Part shown: positions 477 to 57,573 of the stretch, in pieces
How the letters are laid out: every line of letters starts with the position of its first letter
Numbering within the stretch: the stretch's first letter is position 1
NCBI GenBank assembly: GCA_018673485.1
Contig: JABHCP010000001.1
Location: forward strand, 3,512 to 67,511
Reading direction: 5' to 3'
Length of the DNA stretch: 64,000 nucleotides
Origin: Candidatus Uhrbacteria bacterium
GTDB taxonomy: Bacteria; Patescibacteriota; Patescibacteriia; UBA9934
The notes under the pieces: model-generated
Told to the model about the DNA's origin: nothing
Database searches by the model: none
Seen by the model: only the letters and a program-made list of their open reading frames with translations
Program-made: the position numbers and the translations under genes

Positions 477-566
477 GGCAACCCCCTCCAGCTCCCCCTT
501 GCCCATTCGACAAGCTCAGGGCACCCTGAGTTATATCGAAGGGTGGGAAGTGGGAGAGTCGAACTT
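477..566. repeat. composite palindromic intergenic repeat (CCCCCT/AGGGGG hairpin family plus a TTCGACAAGCTCAGGGC unit)
   Basis: Shares aaccccct...ccccctt motifs with copies at 39475, 43480, 50501 and 55361. The TTCGACAAGCTCAGGGC unit is the reverse complement of GCCCTGAGCCTGTCGAA, found at 52286 and 56328. The track ORFs 387..677 and 499..696 are translations of this repeat. Confidence 0.6.
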
Positions 567-4511: not shown

Positions 4512-4749
4512 AGCTGAACAATTATTGTGTTATATCTACCTCCTCCATGAACACTTATTGTATTCAATTAAGCTAACATTAAATACTTTTTGTATTCATA
4601 AATTACCACACCAAGTGATGTGCATAAAGCGGTGGGTGTGGATAAGACGGGGGGGAAATAGACCATACGTAATTCCAGTGGAGGGCAAGCTGAAGACTTT
4701 ACCTTGCATTATGGCCTTTGTGGATTCTGAACTACCGTTGCTGTTCTCG

Positions 4750-5030
4750 GTCTGGGGGCACTTCGTCCCCCAAACCCCCAAGACTTACTTTCTTTGTTCG
4801 CCTCAAAGAAAGTAAGCAAAGAAAGAGCGGTCGCGGGTCCCACGCCCTATATCCATTTCAATATTGGAAACCTGATTAATTTAAATAGGTATAGGGCTGC
4901 AGTCAATGTTTTTGGGTGACTATGAATGAACTGATTGCCAGCTCGGTCGGCAGGCTCCCTCTCAGACGTGGTTGTCTGACAATGAGTGAACGGAGAGCTA
5001 ACTACTGTAACATTGCCGGGGGACTTAGGT
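4750..5030. repeat. structured ~280 nt repeat element, copy 1 (candidate ncRNA or MITE)
   Basis: About 140 nt of near-identity plus conserved hairpins match the reverse complement of 57061..57340. It sits in a 710 bp spacer separating ftsA from ftsZ. Confidence 0.6.
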
Positions 5031-5222
5031 TAAAGCACATAAACCGCCTTTCGGCGGTTCATTAAACTGTTTTCTGCCTACCGCACTACTACTTATTCTG
5101 TCGTTCCTCCACAGGAATTGCGCATGATCCAAGTGCGCAGTGCTCAGGAGACAAAAAAGCCGAGCATAGACTCGACTCCCAACTGCGCACAGCGTACTGA
5201 GCACCGTGAACTAGCCCTCCAA

Positions 5223-34912: not shown

Positions 34913-34917
34913 AAAAT

Positions 34918-34958
34918 GTGTCACCCCTGGCTACGACCAGGGTCCCATCAACTATCGA
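34918..34958. repeat. TGTCACCCCTGGCTACGACCAGGG hairpin repeat unit
   Basis: Same unit as at 48856 and 53365; translates as VTPGYDQGPI in track ORFs. Confidence 0.6.
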
Positions 34959-39476: not shown

Positions 39477-39556
39477 CCACCCCTATCCCCTCCTTAAAAA
39501 GTAGGGGGACCAAGATCTCGACCCTCCCCCTTTTTAAGGGGGAGCTGGAGGGGGTT
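39475..39556. repeat. palindromic MITE-like repeat (CCCCCT/AGGGGG family)
   Basis: aaccacccctatcccctccttaaaaagtagggggaccaagatctcgaccctccccctttttaagggggagctggagggggtt. Confidence 0.7.
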
Positions 39557-39629
39557 AAATCTTACGTCATTTGACATACTCCCTTATTTACTGCATTATT
39601 GCTACGTAAATACTACATTTTAGCCAACT

Positions 39630-43370: not shown

Positions 43371-43479
43371 ATGTCTATATGATATCAAAATCTTGCTTTT
43401 CGTGGTATTGCACGCTAGTGTATACTGTAGGGTAGAAGATAGTCGACAGCACAAAGCCTAAAGCTTAAAGTAGAATTAC

Positions 43480-43530
43480 GGCAACCCCCTGTCGTCCCCC
43501 TTGGGAAGGGGGGACACGAGAGTCTCGACT
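43480..43530. repeat. truncated copy of the CCCCCT/AGGGGG palindromic repeat
   Basis: ggcaaccccctgtcgtcccccttgggaaggggggacacgagagtctcgac. Confidence 0.6.
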
Positions 43531-48845: not shown

Positions 48846-48855
48846 AATTTTTTAT

Positions 48856-48941
48856 GTGTCACCCCTGGCCACGACCAGGGGTCTATCACTCTTGCGAATT
48901 CGATAGTCGATGGATCCCGGCTCTACGGCCGGGATGACAGA
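48856..48941. repeat. composite hairpin repeat (TGTCACCCCTGGCCACGACCAGGGG + TCGATGGATCCCGGCTCnnnGGCCGGGATGACA)
   Basis: The same two units recur at 53360..53440 and 53500..53555. Confidence 0.7.
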
Positions 48942-50500: not shown

Positions 50501-50593
50501 GCCGGCAACCCCCTCTATCTCCCCCTTGGGAAGGGGGAGGATCTTAGTCTCGACCCCCCCCTCCTTCCCAAGGAGGGGCTGGGGGTGGTTGCC
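50501..50593. repeat. palindromic MITE-like repeat (CCCCCT/AGGGGG family), full copy
   Basis: gccggcaaccccctctatctcccccttgggaagggggagg...ccctccttcccaaggaggggctgggggtggttgccg: an outer inverted repeat enclosing two internal hairpins. Confidence 0.75.
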
Positions 50594-50594
50594 G

Positions 50595-51302
50595 TTATAT
50601 CCGCTCAATTATAATCTCGCTATCTTTTTGTTTAACTTTTACAATTTGCCTTCGCATCATCTCAAGGAGTGCTAGAAAACTTACCACGACTTCCACTTTG
50701 CTTTTTGCACCCGCAACCACATCTTTAAAACTCATCTTTGCGCGAGTACTTATCGCCCCCTTGAGCTCATCGAGTCGTTCCTCAACTGACTTCACTCTTT
50801 CCATTGATATTTCTCGTAGAGCAAAGAACGGTTCCATTCGTTTTAGCAGTGATCGAAAAGCTTGGTGCAAATTTATAAGTGTGATGTTATCTGCCGGATA
50901 AAAAGCATCTTCTGTTTCGATAATCTTCCTCGTGTAAGGTCTTAGATGAGACTTTTTTGGACTTGTAAATTGCTCCTCCAATCGATCGGCTGCTTCTTTA
51001 AACAATCGATACAAACGCAACTGATCTTCCAAGTCCTCGATTTTATCCTCCTCATCATCAATGCGTAAATATGGCAAAAGCTCGCGACTTTTTATATATA
51101 TCAAACGCGATGCAATAACCAAAAAATCAGCCATTTCCTCAGGCAACACCTGCTCACTATCAAGCCGTTGCAGATACTCGTCAGCAACTTCGGCAAGGTT
51201 CACATCCTTAATTTCCAACTCACGCTTATCGAGCAATTCCAAAAGAAGCCCCAAGGGACCAGCAAACGCCTCCTGCTTGATTTCGAACTGCATCATACTC
51301 AC
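50595..51302 (-). CDS. scpA: segregation and condensation protein A
   Basis: 235 aa, kleisin ScpA family N-terminus. Confidence 0.9.
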   Translation of the reverse strand: MSMMQFEIKQEAFAGPLGLLLELLDKRELEIKDVNLAEVADEYLQRLDSEQVLPEEMADFLVIASRLIYIKSRELLPYLRIDDEEDKIEDLEDQLRLYRLFKEAADRLEEQFTSPKKSHLRPYTRKIIETEDAFYPADNITLINLHQAFRSLLKRMEPFFALREISMERVKSVEERLDELKGAISTRAKMSFKDVVAGAKSKVEVVVSFLALLEMMRRQIVKVKQKDSEIIIERI

Positions 51303-51744: not shown

Positions 51745-51852
51745 TGAACTCTGTAATCAGTAGATCCTTCGACTCCCTTCGACCCGTAAGACGGGTCTTC
51801 GGTCACTCAGGATGACGGTTTCTGGAATGCAACTATTCGCTACCGTCACTTT
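51745..51852 (-). repeat. conserved structured 3'UTR element abutting the aspS stop codon
   Basis: On the RNA sense strand: UGACGGUAGCG..ACCGUCAUCCUGAGUGACCGAAGACCCGUCUUACGGGUCGAAG..GAAGGAUCU. Homologous to the element after hisS, with compensatory base changes. Confidence 0.6.
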
Positions 51853-53267
51853 TTAATCTCAATATTCGCCTCGCTCAGTGCTTTCTCGGAAAGTGCGGAT
51901 GGGGCGTCCATCATGAGGTCTCGGGCGCTTCCGTCTTTTGGAAATGCTATAACTTCTCGGATGTTTGGCTCGTTTTGCAAAATCGCCATGATCCTATCCA
52001 TTCCAAGTGCTAATCCACCATGCGGTGGTGCTCCGTATTCAAATGCTTGCAGCATGGTGCCAAATTGAGCTTCGATCTGCTCCCCCTCAAATCCCATAAT
52101 CTCCAGCGCCGCTTTCAATAACTCCGGCTTGTGATTACGGATACTCCCTCCACCGACTTCAAATCCATTCAATATAATATCGAACTGAGGAGCGATGATA
52201 TTCTCGACGTTCTTCTTTTCAAGTAAATCACTTTCAAACTCTGGCTTTGCCGCAGAGAATGGATTGTGAGTAAATGTCCAACTCTGCCCTGAGCCTGTCG
52301 AAGGGCCGCCATTATCGTCTTTTTCAAAGAATGGGAAATCGACCACCCAACAAAACGCGAGCAAATTCGGATCATCTTTATCCTCACGAAGATCGGGCCT
52401 ATCATTGCCATACTTCTCCATAGCTTCTGCATAACTCATTCGCGGAAATGGCTTTTGCTGAATTTTCTTTTCAGGATAATTATTCTCAACTACCTTTATC
52501 ATCATCTCCTCGATCAATCCTATTACATCCTCCTCTTGCACAAAGCTCATCTCAAGATCCATCTGTGTAAATTCTGGCTGTCTGTCACCACGTTGATCTT
52601 CATCACGGAAACACTTTGCCATCTGGAAATACCGCTCAACACCAGACGTCATCAAAAGCTGCTTAAACTGCTGCGGCGCCTGTGGTAACACATAAAAATT
52701 CTCAGGATGAAGACGTGACGGAACAATGAATTCTCTTGAACCCTCTGGAGTTCCCTTTGTAAGCTGTGGCGTTTCAATTTCGATAAAATCTTTATCACTC
52801 AAAAATTGTCGCATTGCCTGAAATACTTTGTTTCGATTTCGAATGTTTGTAGCCATTCGTTCAGATCGCAAATCAAGGTATCGATATTTAAGTCGAACGT
52901 CCTCACCTACTGCCGATGTGTCTTTATCTAATTCAAACGGTGGAGTCTTTGCTTCGTTTAGAACTGTAATCTTTTTTGCCAAAAGCTCAACTGTTCCGGT
53001 TGGGATCTTGTTGTTAATCTGACGTTCACCTCGCTTTTGAACTACGCCTTCAATCTCTACAACCCACTCAGGTCGAAGAGTCTCGGCAATCTTTGTTCCT
53101 TCTTCTCCCAAATCAGCTGGAACTCCCACAATTTGCAAAAGACCGTCCTTATCACGAAGATCAAAAAACATGATCTTACCCATGTCGCGTCGCGCATGAA
53201 TCCATCCGGCTACTTTTACAGTCTCCTCTGCCTTGCCGACAGTTTCTGAAGTAAATATTCGTTTCAT
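51846..53267 (-). CDS. aspS: aspartate--tRNA ligase (compact, lacks the GAD insertion)
   Basis: OB-fold N-terminus, motif 2 CFRDEDQRGDRQPEFTQMDLEMSF, motif 3 GGLALGMDRIMAIL; 473 aa. Carries a repeat-derived in-frame insertion GGPSTGSGQSW. Confidence 0.9.
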   Translation of the reverse strand: MKRIFTSETVGKAEETVKVAGWIHARRDMGKIMFFDLRDKDGLLQIVGVPADLGEEGTKIAETLRPEWVVEIEGVVQKRGERQINNKIPTGTVELLAKKITVLNEAKTPPFELDKDTSAVGEDVRLKYRYLDLRSERMATNIRNRNKVFQAMRQFLSDKDFIEIETPQLTKGTPEGSREFIVPSRLHPENFYVLPQAPQQFKQLLMTSGVERYFQMAKCFRDEDQRGDRQPEFTQMDLEMSFVQEEDVIGLIEEMMIKVVENNYPEKKIQQKPFPRMSYAEAMEKYGNDRPDLREDKDDPNLLAFCWVVDFPFFEKDDNGGPSTGSGQSWTFTHNPFSAAKPEFESDLLEKKNVENIIAPQFDIILNGFEVGGGSIRNHKPELLKAALEIMGFEGEQIEAQFGTMLQAFEYGAPPHGGLALGMDRIMAILQNEPNIREVIAFPKDGSARDLMMDAPSALSEKALSEANIEIKK

Positions 53268-53269
53268 AT

Positions 53270-53560
53270 GAATGTTTAAAGTGTTTAAGTGTCTAAAATG
53301 TTTAAATGTTTATGGGGTTTAGTTTACCTGTTTGCAGTAATTTGCTCAAGATCGTCACCATTTGTCACCCCTGGCTACGACCAGGGGCCCATCAATAAAT
53401 CGAACTCGATAATCGATGGATCCCGGCTCGAAGGCCGGGATGACACAGGCACAATTTATGTGTCATTCCTGCGAAAGCAGGAACCCATCATTACCGTGAG
53501 CTCGATCGAATTTCGATAATCGATGGATCCCGGCTCGGGGGCCGGGATGACAGATTATAC
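53270..53560. repeat. repeat-dense intergenic block (GTTTAAA repeats, TGTCACCCCTGG hairpin unit, two GGATCCCGGCTC..GGCCGGGATGACA units, one GTCATTCCTGCGAAAGCAGGAAC unit)
   Basis: Units match 48856..48941 and 34918..34958. Track ORF 53289..53519 is a repeat translation containing the SFLRKQEP motif. Confidence 0.7.
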
Positions 53561-55360: not shown

Positions 55361-55494
55361 AACCCCCTCCAGCCGTCGCTCTTTCAGAGCTATGGCCGGC
55401 ACAGCCATCTCCCCCTTAAAAATGGGGAGGGTCCAAGTCTAGACCTCGACTCCCCTCCTTTTTAAGGAGGGGCTAGGGGTGGTTATGTGAAAGA
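55361..55494. repeat. palindromic MITE-like repeat (CCCCCT/AGGGGG family), longest copy
   Basis: aaccccctccagcc...tcccccttaaaaatggggagg...ccctcctttttaaggaggggctaggggtggtt. Confidence 0.75.
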
Positions 55495-55505
55495 AATTAA
55501 CTTCC

Positions 55506-56282
55506 TTAAATATTAATCTTAGGCTGAGGAGTGATAATCTCCGGACCATCCTCGGTTACCACTACTGTAACCTCAAAATGCGCCGCATCAGACTCGTCCT
55601 GCGTACGGATTGACCAACCGTCGTCATCTGTTTTAATTTTATAATCACCAGCAGTTAGCATCGGCTCAAGCGCCAAACACATTCCCTGCTTAATTTTTAC
55701 AATGGGAAAATCACCACTGGTAAAATTTGGAATAGACGGCTTCTCATGCACCGCGTGTCCAACACCATGCCCGGTCAATGATTGTACGATACCGTAGTCT
55801 GTCCCCTCTACAACCTCCTCAACTGCCTTAGCGATATCTTGAATGACATCACCTTCTTTGCAAGCCTCCACTGCACGCTCAAGCGCAAGTCGAGTTGTTC
55901 GAAGTAAAGCTTTACGCTCATCGCTAATTGATCCCACCGGAACAGTCACCGCCATGTCAGTACAAAGTCCTTTGTACCAACAACCGATATCGAGCCCAAC
56001 AATGTCCCCTTCTTTAAGTTCAATGTCACGATCTCCGCAACCATGCACGATCTCATCGTTTGCAGAAATACACAGCGTAGACGGAAATGGAATATCGTCA
56101 CCATAACCTTTAAACGACGGCTTTGCACCCTCATCAAGCAACGCCTGCTCTGCAATTTGATCGATCTCTGACATCAAAACACCAGGCTTGATTGCATCAA
56201 CCGCCTTTTGCAATGCGCTTGCTAGAATCTTCCCACCCTCGCGCATGATCTGAATTTCTTCTTGTGTTTTTATGAGTGACAT
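55506..56282 (-). CDS. map: methionine aminopeptidase type I
   Basis: 258 aa pita-bread fold with metal ligands (D, D, H, E, E). Confidence 0.9.
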   Translation of the reverse strand: MSLIKTQEEIQIMREGGKILASALQKAVDAIKPGVLMSEIDQIAEQALLDEGAKPSFKGYGDDIPFPSTLCISANDEIVHGCGDRDIELKEGDIVGLDIGCWYKGLCTDMAVTVPVGSISDERKALLRTTRLALERAVEACKEGDVIQDIAKAVEEVVEGTDYGIVQSLTGHGVGHAVHEKPSIPNFTSGDFPIVKIKQGMCLALEPMLTAGDYKIKTDDDGWSIRTQDESDAAHFEVTVVVTEDGPEIITPQPKINI

Positions 56283-56327
56283 ATCTTTATTAATATCTTA
56301 AACCACTATACAACTACCCACTCAGAG

Positions 56328-56348
56328 CCCTGAGCCTGTCGAAGGGCG
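56328..56348. repeat. GCCCTGAGCCTGTCGAAGGGC repeat unit
   Basis: 21 nt identical to 52286..52306 inside aspS, and reverse-complement related to 506..522. Confidence 0.7.
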
Positions 56349-56432
56349 AAGAGTCCCGTTGTTTACGTCTACGTTCGATCGTTGACGCACGGGATCCTTC
56401 GTCGCCTTTAGGCTCCTCTGGATGGGGGTAGA

Positions 56433-56987
56433 CTACAAACTAAGTGCTTGAACAATCCGCTGTGTTACTTCCTCGATACTTCCAACTCCATCAACCTCAA
56501 GCGCAATTCCAAGAGCTTTATACTTCTCGATAATCGGCTCTGTGTCATTATGGTAAATATCCAAACGCTTCATAATGGTCTCCTTGTTGTCGTCCATTCT
56601 GCACTCAATCTCCGCACGCTTTAGTAAACGACCCAAAGTCTCTTCTTTTGGAATAGTAACCACAACTACCTTAGTTGGAACATCAAAGTTTCTAAACGTA
56701 TTGTACTGCGCAATATTGCGCGGATATCCATCCAAAATATATCCATTCTCCGCATCCTCTTTCTGCAATCGCAATTTTAAAACATCGAGCGCCGTGTCGT
56801 CCGAAACCAACTCACCAAGATTAATAATGTCATCAATCTTATTTCCCAAAATACTCCCCGACTTAACCTCATCTCGAAGCAACTCACCCATCGACAAAGC
56901 CGGAATACCAAGCCTCTCCGACAAAATCTTCGCCTGAGTTCCCTTCCCACTCCCCTGCGGACCCAACACCAATATTTTATGTTTCAT
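56433..56987 (-). CDS. adk: adenylate kinase
   Basis: ILVLGPQGSGKGTQAK P-loop, short-lid form, 184 aa. Confidence 0.95.
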   Translation of the reverse strand: MKHKILVLGPQGSGKGTQAKILSERLGIPALSMGELLRDEVKSGSILGNKIDDIINLGELVSDDTALDVLKLRLQKEDAENGYILDGYPRNIAQYNTFRNFDVPTKVVVVTIPKEETLGRLLKRAEIECRMDDNKETIMKRLDIYHNDTEPIIEKYKALGIALEVDGVGSIEEVTQRIVQALSL

Positions 56988-57060
56988 AGTAATCGTTGAA
57001 ATTGTTTAATCGCTCGGCTTCACCTCGCTTGTCTAAAATGTTTATTATTATCTTCACTCA

Positions 57061-57340
57061 CCTGAGTCCCCCGGCAATGTTTAAGTAGTTACCCCCCGTC
57101 CATTCATTGTCAGACAACCCCGTCTGAGAGGGAGCCTGCCGACCGAACTGGCAATCAGTCCATTCATAGTTACCCAAAAACATTGACTGCAGGCCGAGGC
57201 ATTCTTTGCGGCCGTGGGACTACTCTGAAAAGGCTTTTTTCCGGCGGAGCCGGACCTGGCTCCGCCATGGCTTTGCATACTTTCTTTGAGCCAACAAAGA
57301 AAGTATGTCTGGGGGTTACAGGGGGATGAAATACCCCCTG
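57061..57340. repeat. structured ~280 nt repeat element, copy 2
   Basis: Reverse complement of 4750..5030. Conserved core of ~140 nt, conserved hairpin TACTTTCTTTG..CAAAGAAAGTA, compensatory stem CAGGGGG/CCCCCTG versus GGGGG/CCCCC. Confidence 0.6.
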
Positions 57341-57345
57341 CTTAG

Positions 57346-57573
57346 CTAAACCTCAAATGTCTTCTTCAAAGCCCTCTCGTTATCATTGCTAGAGATCAAA
57401 TGCGCCCTCTCAAGGTGCTTAAACAGCTCCCTAACGCGCTCTTCGTCCAAAGACCCATATTTCCTCATATAGATCTGCAAAGCCACCTCCACAAGGCTCC
57501 TTTCCCTAGAATCCAACCCCATACTACGAGAAAGCTTATGGATCCCATCATCGCTCAATTTAACTTCAGTCAT
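57346..57573 (-). CDS. hypothetical small helical protein
   Basis: 75 aa with no family match; occupies the position where infA would normally sit but is not IF-1. Confidence 0.35.
   Translation of the reverse strand: MTEVKLSDDGIHKLSRSMGLDSRERSLVEVALQIYMRKYGSLDEERVRELFKHLERAHLISSNDNERALKKTFEV

Follow-up and report, generated by a model that had tools for sequence, protein, structure and literature searches.

The window analysed here, a stretch of DNA of 64,000 nt, contains an aspS gene with a 24-nt in-frame insertion that consists largely of a small dispersed repeat unit. The unit is also found twice in intergenic DNA of the window, once exactly and once as a variant. The features are the following:

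51846..53267, minus strand: aspS, bacterial-type aspartyl-tRNA synthetase (AspRS) of 473 aa without the GAD insertion domain (ORF, Pfam, NCBIfam, PDB alignment)
52281..52304, minus strand: inserted DNA of 24 nt, in gene sense CCTTCGACAGGCTCAGGGCAGAGT, encoding PSTGSGQS (residues 322-329; codon alignment)
52286..52306, no strand assigned: 21-nt unit in aspS, GCCCTGAGCCTGTCGAAGGGC on the plus strand (window search, codon alignment)
56327..56347, plus strand: exact intergenic copy of the 21-nt unit (window search)
56314..56431, plus strand: imperfect intergenic hairpin of approximately 118 nt containing the exact copy, between the ORFs 55506..56282 and 56433..56987
496..547, plus strand: intergenic hairpin made up of the variant unit 502-522 CCCATTCGACAAGCTCAGGGC and the partner arm 523-545 ACCCTGAGTTATATCGAAGGGTG

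The aspS gene and its product

The product of aspS is a class IIb AspRS that combines the catalytic core (Pfam PF00152, tRNA-synt_2, 2e-110) with an N-terminal OB domain (PF01336, 9e-17). It scores above both aspS equivalog cut-offs, with 626 bits for NCBIfam NF001750 (cut-off 443) and 560 for TIGR00459 (cut-off 374). The affinity is bacterial rather than archaeal (626 vs 257 bits), and P0001, which is named ‘aspartate--tRNA ligase [Candidatus Uhrbacteria bacterium]’, has the same sequence (100% identity). The GAD domain of approximately 120-130 aa is missing: the PDB alignment with 4rmf skips the chain from residue 286 to residue 405, at which query residue 294 continues, and the NCBIfam match is also split in two. 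More than 200 AspRS homologues from the Candidate Phyla Radiation (CPR) are all approximately 465 aa long and all lack this domain. A search of the accessible literature for work on AspRS in the CPR, or on the absence of GAD from it, yielded no paper.

Purifying selection on the gene is strong. We calculated a dN/dS of approximately 0.05 against the loci L001 and L004, with dS saturated, and the protein deviates at just two of the columns that are at least 97% conserved (Y362F, H404T). Judging from this ratio and from the conserved core residues that are kept, the enzyme with the insertion would stay functional.

Size, boundaries and position of the insertion

Around the insertion the gene is translated as FEKDDNGGPSTGSGQSWTFTHNPF. 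The nearest orthologues, P0003 and P0004, are 85-86% identical and read KDDNGG|W without the insertion; in the codon alignment L001 reads GGA GGC|TGG and L004 reads GGA GGA|TTC, again without it. Because the nearest orthologues read GGN GGN|TGG, the window carries a clean insertion of 24 nt and eight residues. The Trp codon of WTFTHNPF follows directly on its 3' side. Its junctions are GGC|CCTTCG...CAGAGT|TGG compared to the empty site GGC|TGG in L001, and no target-site duplication is visible in this comparison. The 21-nt unit extends slightly beyond the inserted DNA: its last 2 nt on the plus strand, which come first in gene sense, coincide with bases of the GGC codon that was already there.

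The initial annotation had regarded the extra residues as an in-frame insertion just before an HHPFT-like segment. This agrees with the orthologue alignment, in which the insertion is lineage-specific and lies five residues upstream of the conserved His of HHPF/HNPF. The size given there, 21 nt and seven residues, is to be corrected to 24 nt and eight residues (PSTGSGQS). The E. coli AspRS string that was quoted for comparison matches residues 425-456 of PDB 1c0a.

In an AlphaFold2 model residues 322-329 are predicted as coil between the strands 314-316 and 330-332, with a pLDDT of 59 for the block, which places the insertion in a loop. This AspRS loop near the active site is flexible and variable in length, and the longer version of M. 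smegmatis AspRS can fold back over the aspartyl-adenylate site (PMC4237437). The loop has 6 aa in 105 of the 120 close homologues and 5 aa in seven more; by a wider measure it has 7-9 residues in 85 out of 91 diverse representatives. Internal insertions are rare in 209 CPR AspRS, and 20 out of 23 fall in this active-site-adjacent loop.

Mycobacterial AspRS (PDB 4rmf, 4o2d) are extended in the same loop, between FE and W/L-T-x-x-H-H/N-P/A-F. Their loop is 11 residues longer than that of E. coli, flexible, and occurs in two conformations near the adenylate site (PMC4237437). The mycobacterial extension is a fixed feature of its clade with no sign of a repeat origin, whereas the extension in the window is recent, repeat-derived and located on a tip lineage.

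The repeat unit within and beyond the window

Searching the 64 kb of the window for the 21-nt unit GCCCTGAGCCTGTCGAAGGGC yielded two exact copies and one variant only. The exact copies are both on the plus strand, one inside aspS at 52286-52306 and the other, identical at 21/21 positions, approximately 4 kb away in intergenic DNA. The variant at 502-522 on the minus strand has three mismatches, while its 17-nt core at 506-522 has one. In 100 shuffled windows with preserved dinucleotide composition 0 matches were obtained, so that none is expected by chance. The exact match to the intergenic copy establishes that the inserted DNA is a dispersed repeat unit, as the initial annotation had claimed. 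A related copy had been listed at 506..522, where we find it as well; the identical intergenic copy was correctly recognized, but its coordinates (56328..56348) were off by one.

The copy at 56327..56347 lies within the 5' arm of a long hairpin with imperfect pairing, and the region 56283-56435 folds with -55.7 kcal/mol (z = -4.2). The hairpin at 496-547 folds with -27.3 kcal/mol (z = -4.4), and its variant unit is identical to the aspS insertion of the metagenome locus L132. The 21-mer alone has just a 5-bp terminal stem (-6.1 kcal/mol, z = -0.8). A role of the insertion in mRNA structure was considered and rejected, as z-values of 0.0 in the window and +1.1 in L003 indicate no significant added structure. 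We also considered the copy at 56327 as the direct donor. This is unsupported: the 3' flanks are just loosely alike (TCTGAGTGGG vs AGAGTTGG), and direct donation would yield 25 nt compared to the 24 nt present.

The unit is not peculiar to one genome. The exact 21-mer occurs in over 120 stretches from a wide range of phyla; it is common to Sphingomonadales, Burkholderiales, Chloroflexota, Actinomycetota, Cyanobacteria, Acidobacteriota and CPR. Its canonical form outside CPR is an inverted pair, with a partner arm for 69 out of 127 copies and a median loop of 30 nt. With the canonical hairpin as query, BLAST against plasmids returned copies in replicons of Sphingobium, Sphingomonas and Comamonas, all of them in intergenic DNA without annotation. 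The CPR DNA examined (approximately 216 kb) contains approximately five intergenic copies, and intergenic copies have no common flank that resembles the aspS site. With Rfam, nothing except three tRNAs was reported for the whole window at the gathering level, and the intergenic copy had no match at E <= 1. A known RNA family was likewise rejected for the canonical Sphingomonas hairpin, which gave just generic hairpin matches far below the Rfam threshold. In the searchable literature we found no description of the DNA unit, its extended forms or its translated peptides.

Recurrence in AspRS of the Candidate Phyla Radiation

Loop insertions are present in 18 of 204 CPR AspRS sequences, and in every case the nearest relative has none. 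Ten bearers agree in the unit, its orientation and its frame (ST[GS]SG). For these ten, Fitch parsimony on the tree requires at least eight changes, and thus at least eight independent gains have occurred. P0300, for example, is 90% identical to its nearest relative P0316, which reads KTEDGG without the insertion, and P0286 is 91% identical to P0284, which lacks it as well. Overall, presence and absence vary between orthologues that are up to 85-93% identical in protein. The proteins P0094 and P0300 are only 70% identical, yet their 24-nt insertions are identical. Between bearer lineages, codons for the same amino acid are identical at 29-44% of the sites outside the unit compared to six to seven out of seven inside. 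The inserted DNA measures 18-30 nt (6-10 aa), the junctions differ by 0-3 codons, and in the sampled tree the insertions are found almost only on tips. Orthologues that share the insertion but lack the repeat family had been named in the initial annotation as a sign of ancestry; other orthologues do carry the insertion, but tree and DNA demonstrate independent gains. What is new is this recurrent parallel insertion into one AspRS loop.

For five of the ten ST[GS]SG bearers, detection relied on a DNA pattern with a set orientation and an exact 15-mer core, the frame being left free (gap 1-16); in these five, orientation and core identity are thus in part a product of the search. The protein-based sample of approximately 199 sequences contains five ST[GS]SG bearers and one with the opposite orientation. 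The latter, P0298 (HPELAEG), is the sole case of its kind, and its origin from the unit was judged from the peptide alone. Five of the six reading frames of the unit are open; PSTGSG occurs in ten bearers, PELAEG in one, and the other three frames in none. A profile of 63-aa loop fragments, searched against a set of 5.8 billion proteins, yielded 13 short fragments and no new full-length bearers.

Other GC-rich palindromic units have landed in proteins too. The loop insertion of P0015 is a CCCCTCC...GGAGGGG hairpin unit. A unit GGCGGATCCGCCTC[CT]GGCG lies in-frame in the same AspRS loop of P0079, in a second AspRS loop (P0286, P0287) and, again in-frame, in ribosomal protein L18 of L139.

Origin and persistence of the insertion

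The insertions are probably explained by small repeat units that are copied in sporadically and are then filtered, both by a permissive loop and by a reading frame rich in Gly and Ser. A 24-nt copy of the small GC-rich unit, which in intergenic DNA forms one arm of a hairpin, would have entered aspS of this Uhrbacteria lineage after the split from the nearest sampled relatives and landed immediately before the Trp codon of WTFTHNPF. Two properties may have allowed it to persist. The predicted site is the tip of a β-hairpin loop next to the active site, a loop that is flexible by nature and of varying length, and the unit is read in the one frame that gives the Pro/Ser/Thr/Gly-rich, linker-like PSTGSGQ. 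Template switching or microhomology-mediated repair are candidates for the copying mechanism, a further one being an enzyme that acts on hairpin repeats. Filtering at the protein level, rather than targeting, could then account for the recurrence. As the same unit in at least eight CPR lineages and other palindromic units have entered, the loop behaves like a trap for them. For the insertion itself, an adaptive role is less probable than a neutral or slightly deleterious effect, where neutrality is our assumption.

Two observations may point beyond pure filtering. The junction immediately before TGG is identical in three lineages (the window, P0300 and P0094), two of which share GGC GGC upstream, and this hints at some target preference. 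The many landings in one loop of 18 nt may also exceed what random insertion and filtering produce, given the sparse copies in the CPR DNA examined. A targeted, homing-like insertion, in which the unit or its machinery prefers GGN GGN^TGG ACN TTY beside the very conserved motif, would account for the junction GGC GGC|unit|TGG common to the window and P0300 and for the same 3' junction in P0094. It would also fit the 24-nt identity of the inserts in P0094 and P0300, the rarity of the unit elsewhere in the CPR DNA examined, and the orientation common to all clear cases but one. Targeting is nevertheless unlikely, as other bearers carry the unit two to three codons further upstream (KTD|PST..., KVN|PST...) with 18-30 nt inserted, unrelated units land in the same loop, intergenic copies are without a common flank like the aspS site, and a target-site duplication is lacking.

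A reading of the 21-27-nt unit (core TTCGACARGCTCAGG) as an active micro-mobile element that crosses phyla and has a target preference or a selected benefit in the active-site loop of the GAD-less CPR AspRS appears improbable to us. If this were true, the repeated captures would be more than accidents that the protein tolerates, and small repeats would in this way recurrently reshape the catalytic environment of essential translation enzymes. The second unit behaves likewise in AspRS and in ribosomal protein L18.

The term “domesticated” had been used for the repeat in the initial annotation. An adaptive loop extension in this sense would mean that the residues improve or regulate the GAD-less CPR AspRS, for instance through a cap over the adenylate site or through contacts with the acceptor end of the tRNA. 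Arguments for it are the position of the loop beside the active site together with the ability of the longer M. smegmatis loop to fold over the aspartyl-adenylate site (PMC4237437), the absence from all CPR homologues of the GAD domain, which normally helps to position the tRNA, and a strong frame bias. We consider such an adaptation quite improbable, and there is no indication of a gained function. The tolerance of Gly/Ser-rich linkers explains the frame bias equally well, approximately 91% of CPR AspRS keep the short loop, the inserted peptides vary in length and sequence, and no deep clade has kept an insertion, since the nearest sampled relative of every bearer is without one.

A single old insertion that was lost often, or a short patch recombined between aspS genes, is disfavoured and very improbable. 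P0094 and P0286, which are 86% identical and both contain PSTGSGQ, could share a single event. For the bearers as a whole, more than 180 of the 204 sequences lack an insertion, the closest relatives of every bearer among them; the unit is conserved between flanks whose synonymous sites are scrambled, junctions vary between bearers, and lineages that are only 55-70% identical would be too far apart for homologous exchange.

Repeats can misjoin short-read assemblies, but a chimeric join at the repeat, as an artefact of assembly or sequencing, is for practical purposes refuted, because four further contigs from other samples and assemblers contain aspS with 0 differences, insertion included (five independent assemblies in total), the insert is in-frame with aspS perfectly colinear on both sides, and the same phenomenon occurs in approximately 17 other lineages.

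Comparison with known repeat systems

In-frame palindromic repeats in essential genes are a textbook oddity known mainly from Rickettsia. The Rickettsia palindromic elements (RPEs) are dispersed palindromes that occur in-frame in unrelated and often essential genes, with a peptide compatible with the protein fold (PMC10969869). The aspS unit resembles them as a dispersed palindromic repeat inserted in-frame, with a peptide compatible with the host fold: an exact copy and a variant are found elsewhere within the 64 kb examined, and the insertion lies in-frame in an ORF, at a surface or loop position, and is absent from orthologues. RPEs differ in that they measure approximately 100-150 bp, are confined to Rickettsia and encode a conserved peptide of approximately 30-50 aa, all compared by description; the 24-nt insert has neither this length nor the self-folding of an RPE. 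The aspS unit, unlike RPEs, contributes 18-30 nt (6-10 aa), occurs across phyla and was inserted in parallel at one orthologous loop.

The small dispersed repeats (SDRs) of cyanobacteria, a subject of Elhai et al. in 2008, are reportedly approximately 21-27 nt long, imperfectly palindromic and dispersed. Their mobility is said to have been inferred there from presence and absence at orthologous sites, and they may reportedly sit inside genes or other elements. With the aspS unit, whose inserts measure 18-30 nt, they have in common the very small size, the dispersal and the presence or absence at orthologous sites; the host phylum is a different one, and the likeness is one of description, not of sequence. 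To our knowledge, recurrent capture of SDRs by a single protein loop has not been described.

REP/BIME and REPIN elements, which are mobilized by RAYT transposases, are GC-rich imperfect palindromes of 20-40 nt, often in inverted pairs that form hairpins and mostly extragenic, and the unit may resemble them in this. Inverted pairs are present at 496-547 in the window and for the 69 of 127 copies in other phyla, while the copy in aspS is a single arm. REPs are specific for a species or genus and essentially extragenic, whereas the 21-mer is exact across phyla and its single arm lies inside a gene. The aspS insert also differs from a MITE, which combines terminal inverted repeats with a target-site duplication, in that no target bases are duplicated at its junctions.

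Our observations extend in-frame colonization by repeats to the CPR and to far smaller units (18-30 nt), with at least eight independent entries into the same loop and frame. The parallel gains represent a natural replicated experiment on which loop and frame an essential aminoacyl-tRNA synthetase tolerates, and provide a handle on random versus target-preferring insertion. Peptides such as PSTGSGQ or GGSASG in conserved proteins of metagenome-assembled genomes should be read as repeat-derived insertions, neither assembly errors nor lineage-defining motifs.

For the insertions in P0046 (AAGSGQ) and P0103 (AAPGGGQ), a second copy of the inserted unit was not found in the respective loci, and we left the two unclassified. 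Both might be degraded copies, with 12 out of 15 nt being similar in P0046.

A repeat-derived insertion in aspS

The aspS gene of the window carries a recent, repeat-derived in-frame insertion of 24 nt. It extends a flexible loop close to the active site of the encoded enzyme, which is essential and functional. The 21-nt unit GCCCTGAGCCTGTCGAAGGGC occurs exactly at 52286-52306 and 56327-56347; the initial annotation had placed the first copy correctly and the second one nucleotide off.

Location of the insertion in the window
51846..53267, minus strand: aspS, bacterial-type aspartyl-tRNA synthetase (AspRS), 473 aa; contains the first unit copy
52281-52304, minus strand: inserted DNA, 24 nt / 8 codons, PSTGSGQS, residues 322-329, by codon comparison with L001 and L004

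The encoded protein is identical to the database protein “aspartate--tRNA ligase” of Candidatus Uhrbacteria bacterium, possesses the tRNA-synt_2 and OB anticodon-binding domains according to Pfam, and scores 626 bits against the NCBIfam aspS equivalog (cut-off 443). The match to the Uhrbacteria protein assigns the organism to the Candidate Phyla Radiation (CPR; Patescibacteria). Comparison with L001 and L004, the loci of the nearest orthologues, gives a dN of ~0.095, a dS of 1.8-2.0 and a dN/dS of ~0.05. Among 119 CPR AspRS, columns conserved to at least 97% deviate in the window enzyme only by Y362F and H404T. The latter turns FGHML into FGTML, and His 404 is retained in the two nearest relatives.

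Both nearest orthologues (P0003 and P0004; 465 aa each, 85-86% identical) possess the loop FEKDDNGG-[W/F]TFTHNPF. At the insertion the window DNA reads AAT GGC GGC / CCT TCG ACA GGC TCA GGG CAG AGT / TGG, and the empty sites read AAC GGA GGC / TGG in L001 and AAC GGA GGA / TTC in L004. The insertion point lies directly 5' of the Trp codon, the 21-mer overlaps the pre-existing GGC codon by its first two bases, and no target-site duplication was found at the aspS junctions. Against L001 and L004 the insertion is in-frame as initially annotated, with a size of 24 nt and 8 codons in place of the proposed 21 nt and seven residues. The site is not an assembly chimera: four more contigs (three assemblies from ENA and one from JGI, produced with different assemblers) contain aspS including the insertion with 0 nucleotide differences.

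In an AlphaFold2 model built from the AspRS protein alignment (mean pLDDT 75.9) residues 317-329 form a coil between the strands 314-316 and 330-332, the loop block having a pLDDT of 59 and the flanking blocks 79 and 78. The E. coli AspRS string used for comparison in the initial annotation is correct (residues 436-452 of PDB 1c0a). In E. coli numbering the insertion site separates G443 from L444 and precedes His448 by five residues; His448 contacts the aspartate substrate according to the 1C0A literature. Mycobacterial AspRS (4rmf, 4o2d) naturally carries a long loop at the same site; it exceeds that of E. coli by 11 residues and in 4O2D is folded back onto the aspartyl-adenylate site (PMC4237437). 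No significant mRNA structure is added by the insertion (z = 0.0).

The unit inside and outside the window

A third copy, with three mismatches, is located on the opposite strand at 502-522. The 21-mer was not matched in 100 dinucleotide-preserving shuffles of the window, and the looser motif CYTGAG-N-CGAAGG matched only the unit sites in 64 kb, where 0.02 are expected. As this looser scan adds no further sites, the unit family is real but sparse in the window. Its intergenic copies there are hairpin arms (fold z = -4.2 and -4.4), and the window copies lack a CCGTTC flank.

Species-representative genomes from at least eight phyla contain the exact 21-mer in over 120 stretches, as a lower bound (L010-L129). 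Hosts among the matches listed are Sphingomonadales, Burkholderiales, Dehalococcoidia, Anaerolineales, Actinomycetota, Cyanobacteria, Acidobacteriota, Anaeromyxobacter, Flavobacteriales, Fibrobacteres and Peribacteria. Outside CPR the usual form is an intergenic hairpin, CCGTTC-unit-(loop, median 30 nt)-inverted arm-GAACGG, for which L024:2779-2866 is a canonical example; the CCGTTC flank accompanies 73 and the partner arm 69 of the 127 copies among the matches listed. Intergenic CPR copies (TTCGACARGCTCAGGAC) at L001:19118-19175 and L139:16520-16580 (the P0300 genome) are each followed immediately by a terminator-like hairpin flanked by runs of A and T (aaaaagaaccgacacatgtcggttcttttt, aaaaaatcctctccgaagagaggatttttt), which suggests that the unit tends to occupy gene ends. 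Plasmid copies are unannotated, no Rfam family was matched by the unit, and neither its sequence nor its translated peptides occur in the literature searched.

Recurrence in AspRS

The same kind of insertion arose independently many times. Ten bearers encode ST[GS]SG in the active-site loop, with at least eight gains of this type by parsimony.

AspRS loops with the unit (slashes delimit the insertion)
Window: KDDNGG/PSTGSGQS/W
P0300: KTEDGG/PSTGSGQG/W
P0094: KVEGA/PSTGSGQG/W
P0286: KTD/PSTGSGQ/ESGW
P0354: KTED/SSTGSG/W
L130: KIEDGS/PSTGSGSSN/W
L131: KVN/PSTSSGPSG/W
L132: RTDT/HSTSSGQAGG/W
L133: KTD/PSTSSG/GGW
L134: KTD/PSTGSGQG/W

The core TTCGACA[A/G]GCTCAGG is present in the DNA of 9/9 bearers checked (all ten but P0354); L130-L134 stem from a DNA-pattern scan of metagenomes with fixed orientation and exact core, so that these provide free observations only on frame (gap of 1-16 allowed) and lineage. 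The L132 insertion holds CCCATTCGACAAGCTCAGGGC, the exact variant found intergenically at 502-522 in the window. For the four bearers found through protein similarity alone, codons for the same amino acid are identical in 29-44% of cases outside the unit vs 6-7/7 inside PSTGSGQ. P0094 and P0300, whose proteins are 70% identical, have identical 24-nt inserts, and their 7/7 identical codons correspond to ~2e-4 given a background of 0.29. The nearest relative of P0300 (P0316, 90% identity) is without insertion.

Five of the six frames of the unit are open. The PSTGSG frame is used by ten bearers, an opposite-orientation frame by one (P0298, peptide HPELAEG), and the other three open frames by none. 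A further AspRS, P0336, begins with MPELVEGLRYF; its called N-terminus therefore traverses a unit copy in the PELVEG frame. Probably the start call reaches too far upstream, or a unit immediately precedes the gene.

The loop as an insertion hot spot

Of the 120 closest homologues, 105 have a 6-aa loop between FPFFE and WTFTHNPF, and 7 have one of 5 aa. By a wider measure the loop has 7-9 residues in 85 of the 91 sequences parsed from 150 diverse, mostly GAD-containing (“bacterial insertion” domain) representatives. Another protein search, with P0094 at its centre, brought 86 sequences to the combined CPR set, in which loop insertions of at least 3 residues occur in 18 of 204 parsed AspRS. For all 18 carriers the nearest relative is short-looped (identity 62-93%), and Fitch parsimony on an NJ tree requires at least 15 changes. 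Rare internal insertions anywhere in 209 aligned proteins fall into this loop in 20 of 23 cases.

We propose that units are copied into new sites; template switching and microhomology-mediated repair are candidate routes, as is an enzyme that works on the hairpin repeats. Selection would then purge all insertions except those in the permissive loop, and the surviving frame would be the one read as a Pro/Ser/Thr/Gly-rich linker. Such pure filtering is supported by the scattered junction positions, by the diversity of the inserted units and by the nearest sampled relative of each bearer, which is without insertion in the loop. The junction GGC GGC/.../TGG common to separate lineages (P0300 shares it with the window) and the rarity of the unit in other CPR DNA would be compatible with a target preference of the unit for the aspS loop site, which we consider unlikely. 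An adaptive role of the insertion is more doubtful still, and the initially suggested “domestication”, if taken as a gained function, is supported by no measurement.

Other small units in translation genes

The loop insertion of P0015 (GGACCCCTCCATTCGCGAAGGGAGGGG; L008:1098-1124, aspS) is a near-perfect hairpin, CCCCTCC-N10-GGGAGGGG, and shares its stem class with the intergenic CCCCTCC...GGAGGGG units at 50558-50578 and 55452-55472 of the window. In-frame insertions at three places derive from another small palindromic unit, GGCGGATCCGCCTC[CT]GGCG, which encodes the peptide GGSASG.

Places of GGCGGATCCGCCTC[CT]GGCG
P0079: AspRS active-site loop insertion
P0286 and P0287: second AspRS insertion, after residue 352
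P0300 genome, L139:1964-1982: ribosomal protein L18 gene (1769-2155)
Further coordinates: L140:1922-1940; L009:3159-3177

The L18 of the P0300 genome contains a 9-aa in-frame insertion relative to L001 and L006. The P0015 hairpin and the GGSASG cases therefore indicate that these genomes generally have translation genes colonised in-frame by very small, GC-rich palindromic units.

In size and presence/absence behaviour the 21-nt unit is like the cyanobacterial small dispersed repeats, and its intergenic hairpin form is like REP/REPIN elements. The absence of a target-site duplication sets the insertion apart from MITEs. Rickettsia palindromic elements behave alike, inserting in-frame into unrelated genes (PMC10969869), but here the unit is shorter by a factor of 5-6, forms no stable palindrome by itself, and is part of a sequence that occurs across bacterial phyla. 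What is new is how small the unit is, its CPR host, its occurrence across phyla and the parallel capture, at least eightfold, by one AspRS loop.

Further observations

The window AspRS lacks the whole GAD domain (~120 aa), as do more than 200 homologues from CPR (P0003-P0120, P0284-P0369); in the PDB alignment the window enzyme skips from chain residue 286 to 405. These enzymes are bacterial-type by sequence with ~465 aa vs ~590 for typical bacterial ones, and no report of CPR AspRS without GAD was found in the literature searched. Directly upstream of aspS the P0300 genome contains a second class II D/K/N-type synthetase gene (L139:8704-9999; 431 aa, PF01336 and PF00152), with AsnRS, LysRS or archaeal-type AspRS as candidates; in L140 a tRNA-synt_2 fragment is likewise upstream of aspS.

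The window, from a genome of 44% GC, contains several further families of short GC-rich palindromic intergenic repeats, e.g. ATGTGTCACCCCTGGCNACGACCAGGGG, GGATCCCGGCTC-N-GGCCGGGATGACA and CCCCCTTGGGAAGGGGGA; the copies spot-checked are intergenic.

Other palindromic repeats of the window
34916-34951, 48854-48941, 53360-53447, 53512-53554
39485-39560, 43479-43530, 50503-50597, 55405-55504, 473-501

A non-coding element of ~300 nt occurs twice, inverted, at 4740-5045 (+) and 57045-57350 (-), and has neither a long ORF nor an Rfam match. The copies are 84% identical overall and more than 90% in a ~140-nt core; RNAalifold gives a multi-stem fold, with no covariation from the two copies. It could be a structured RNA not described before, or the end of a mobile element.
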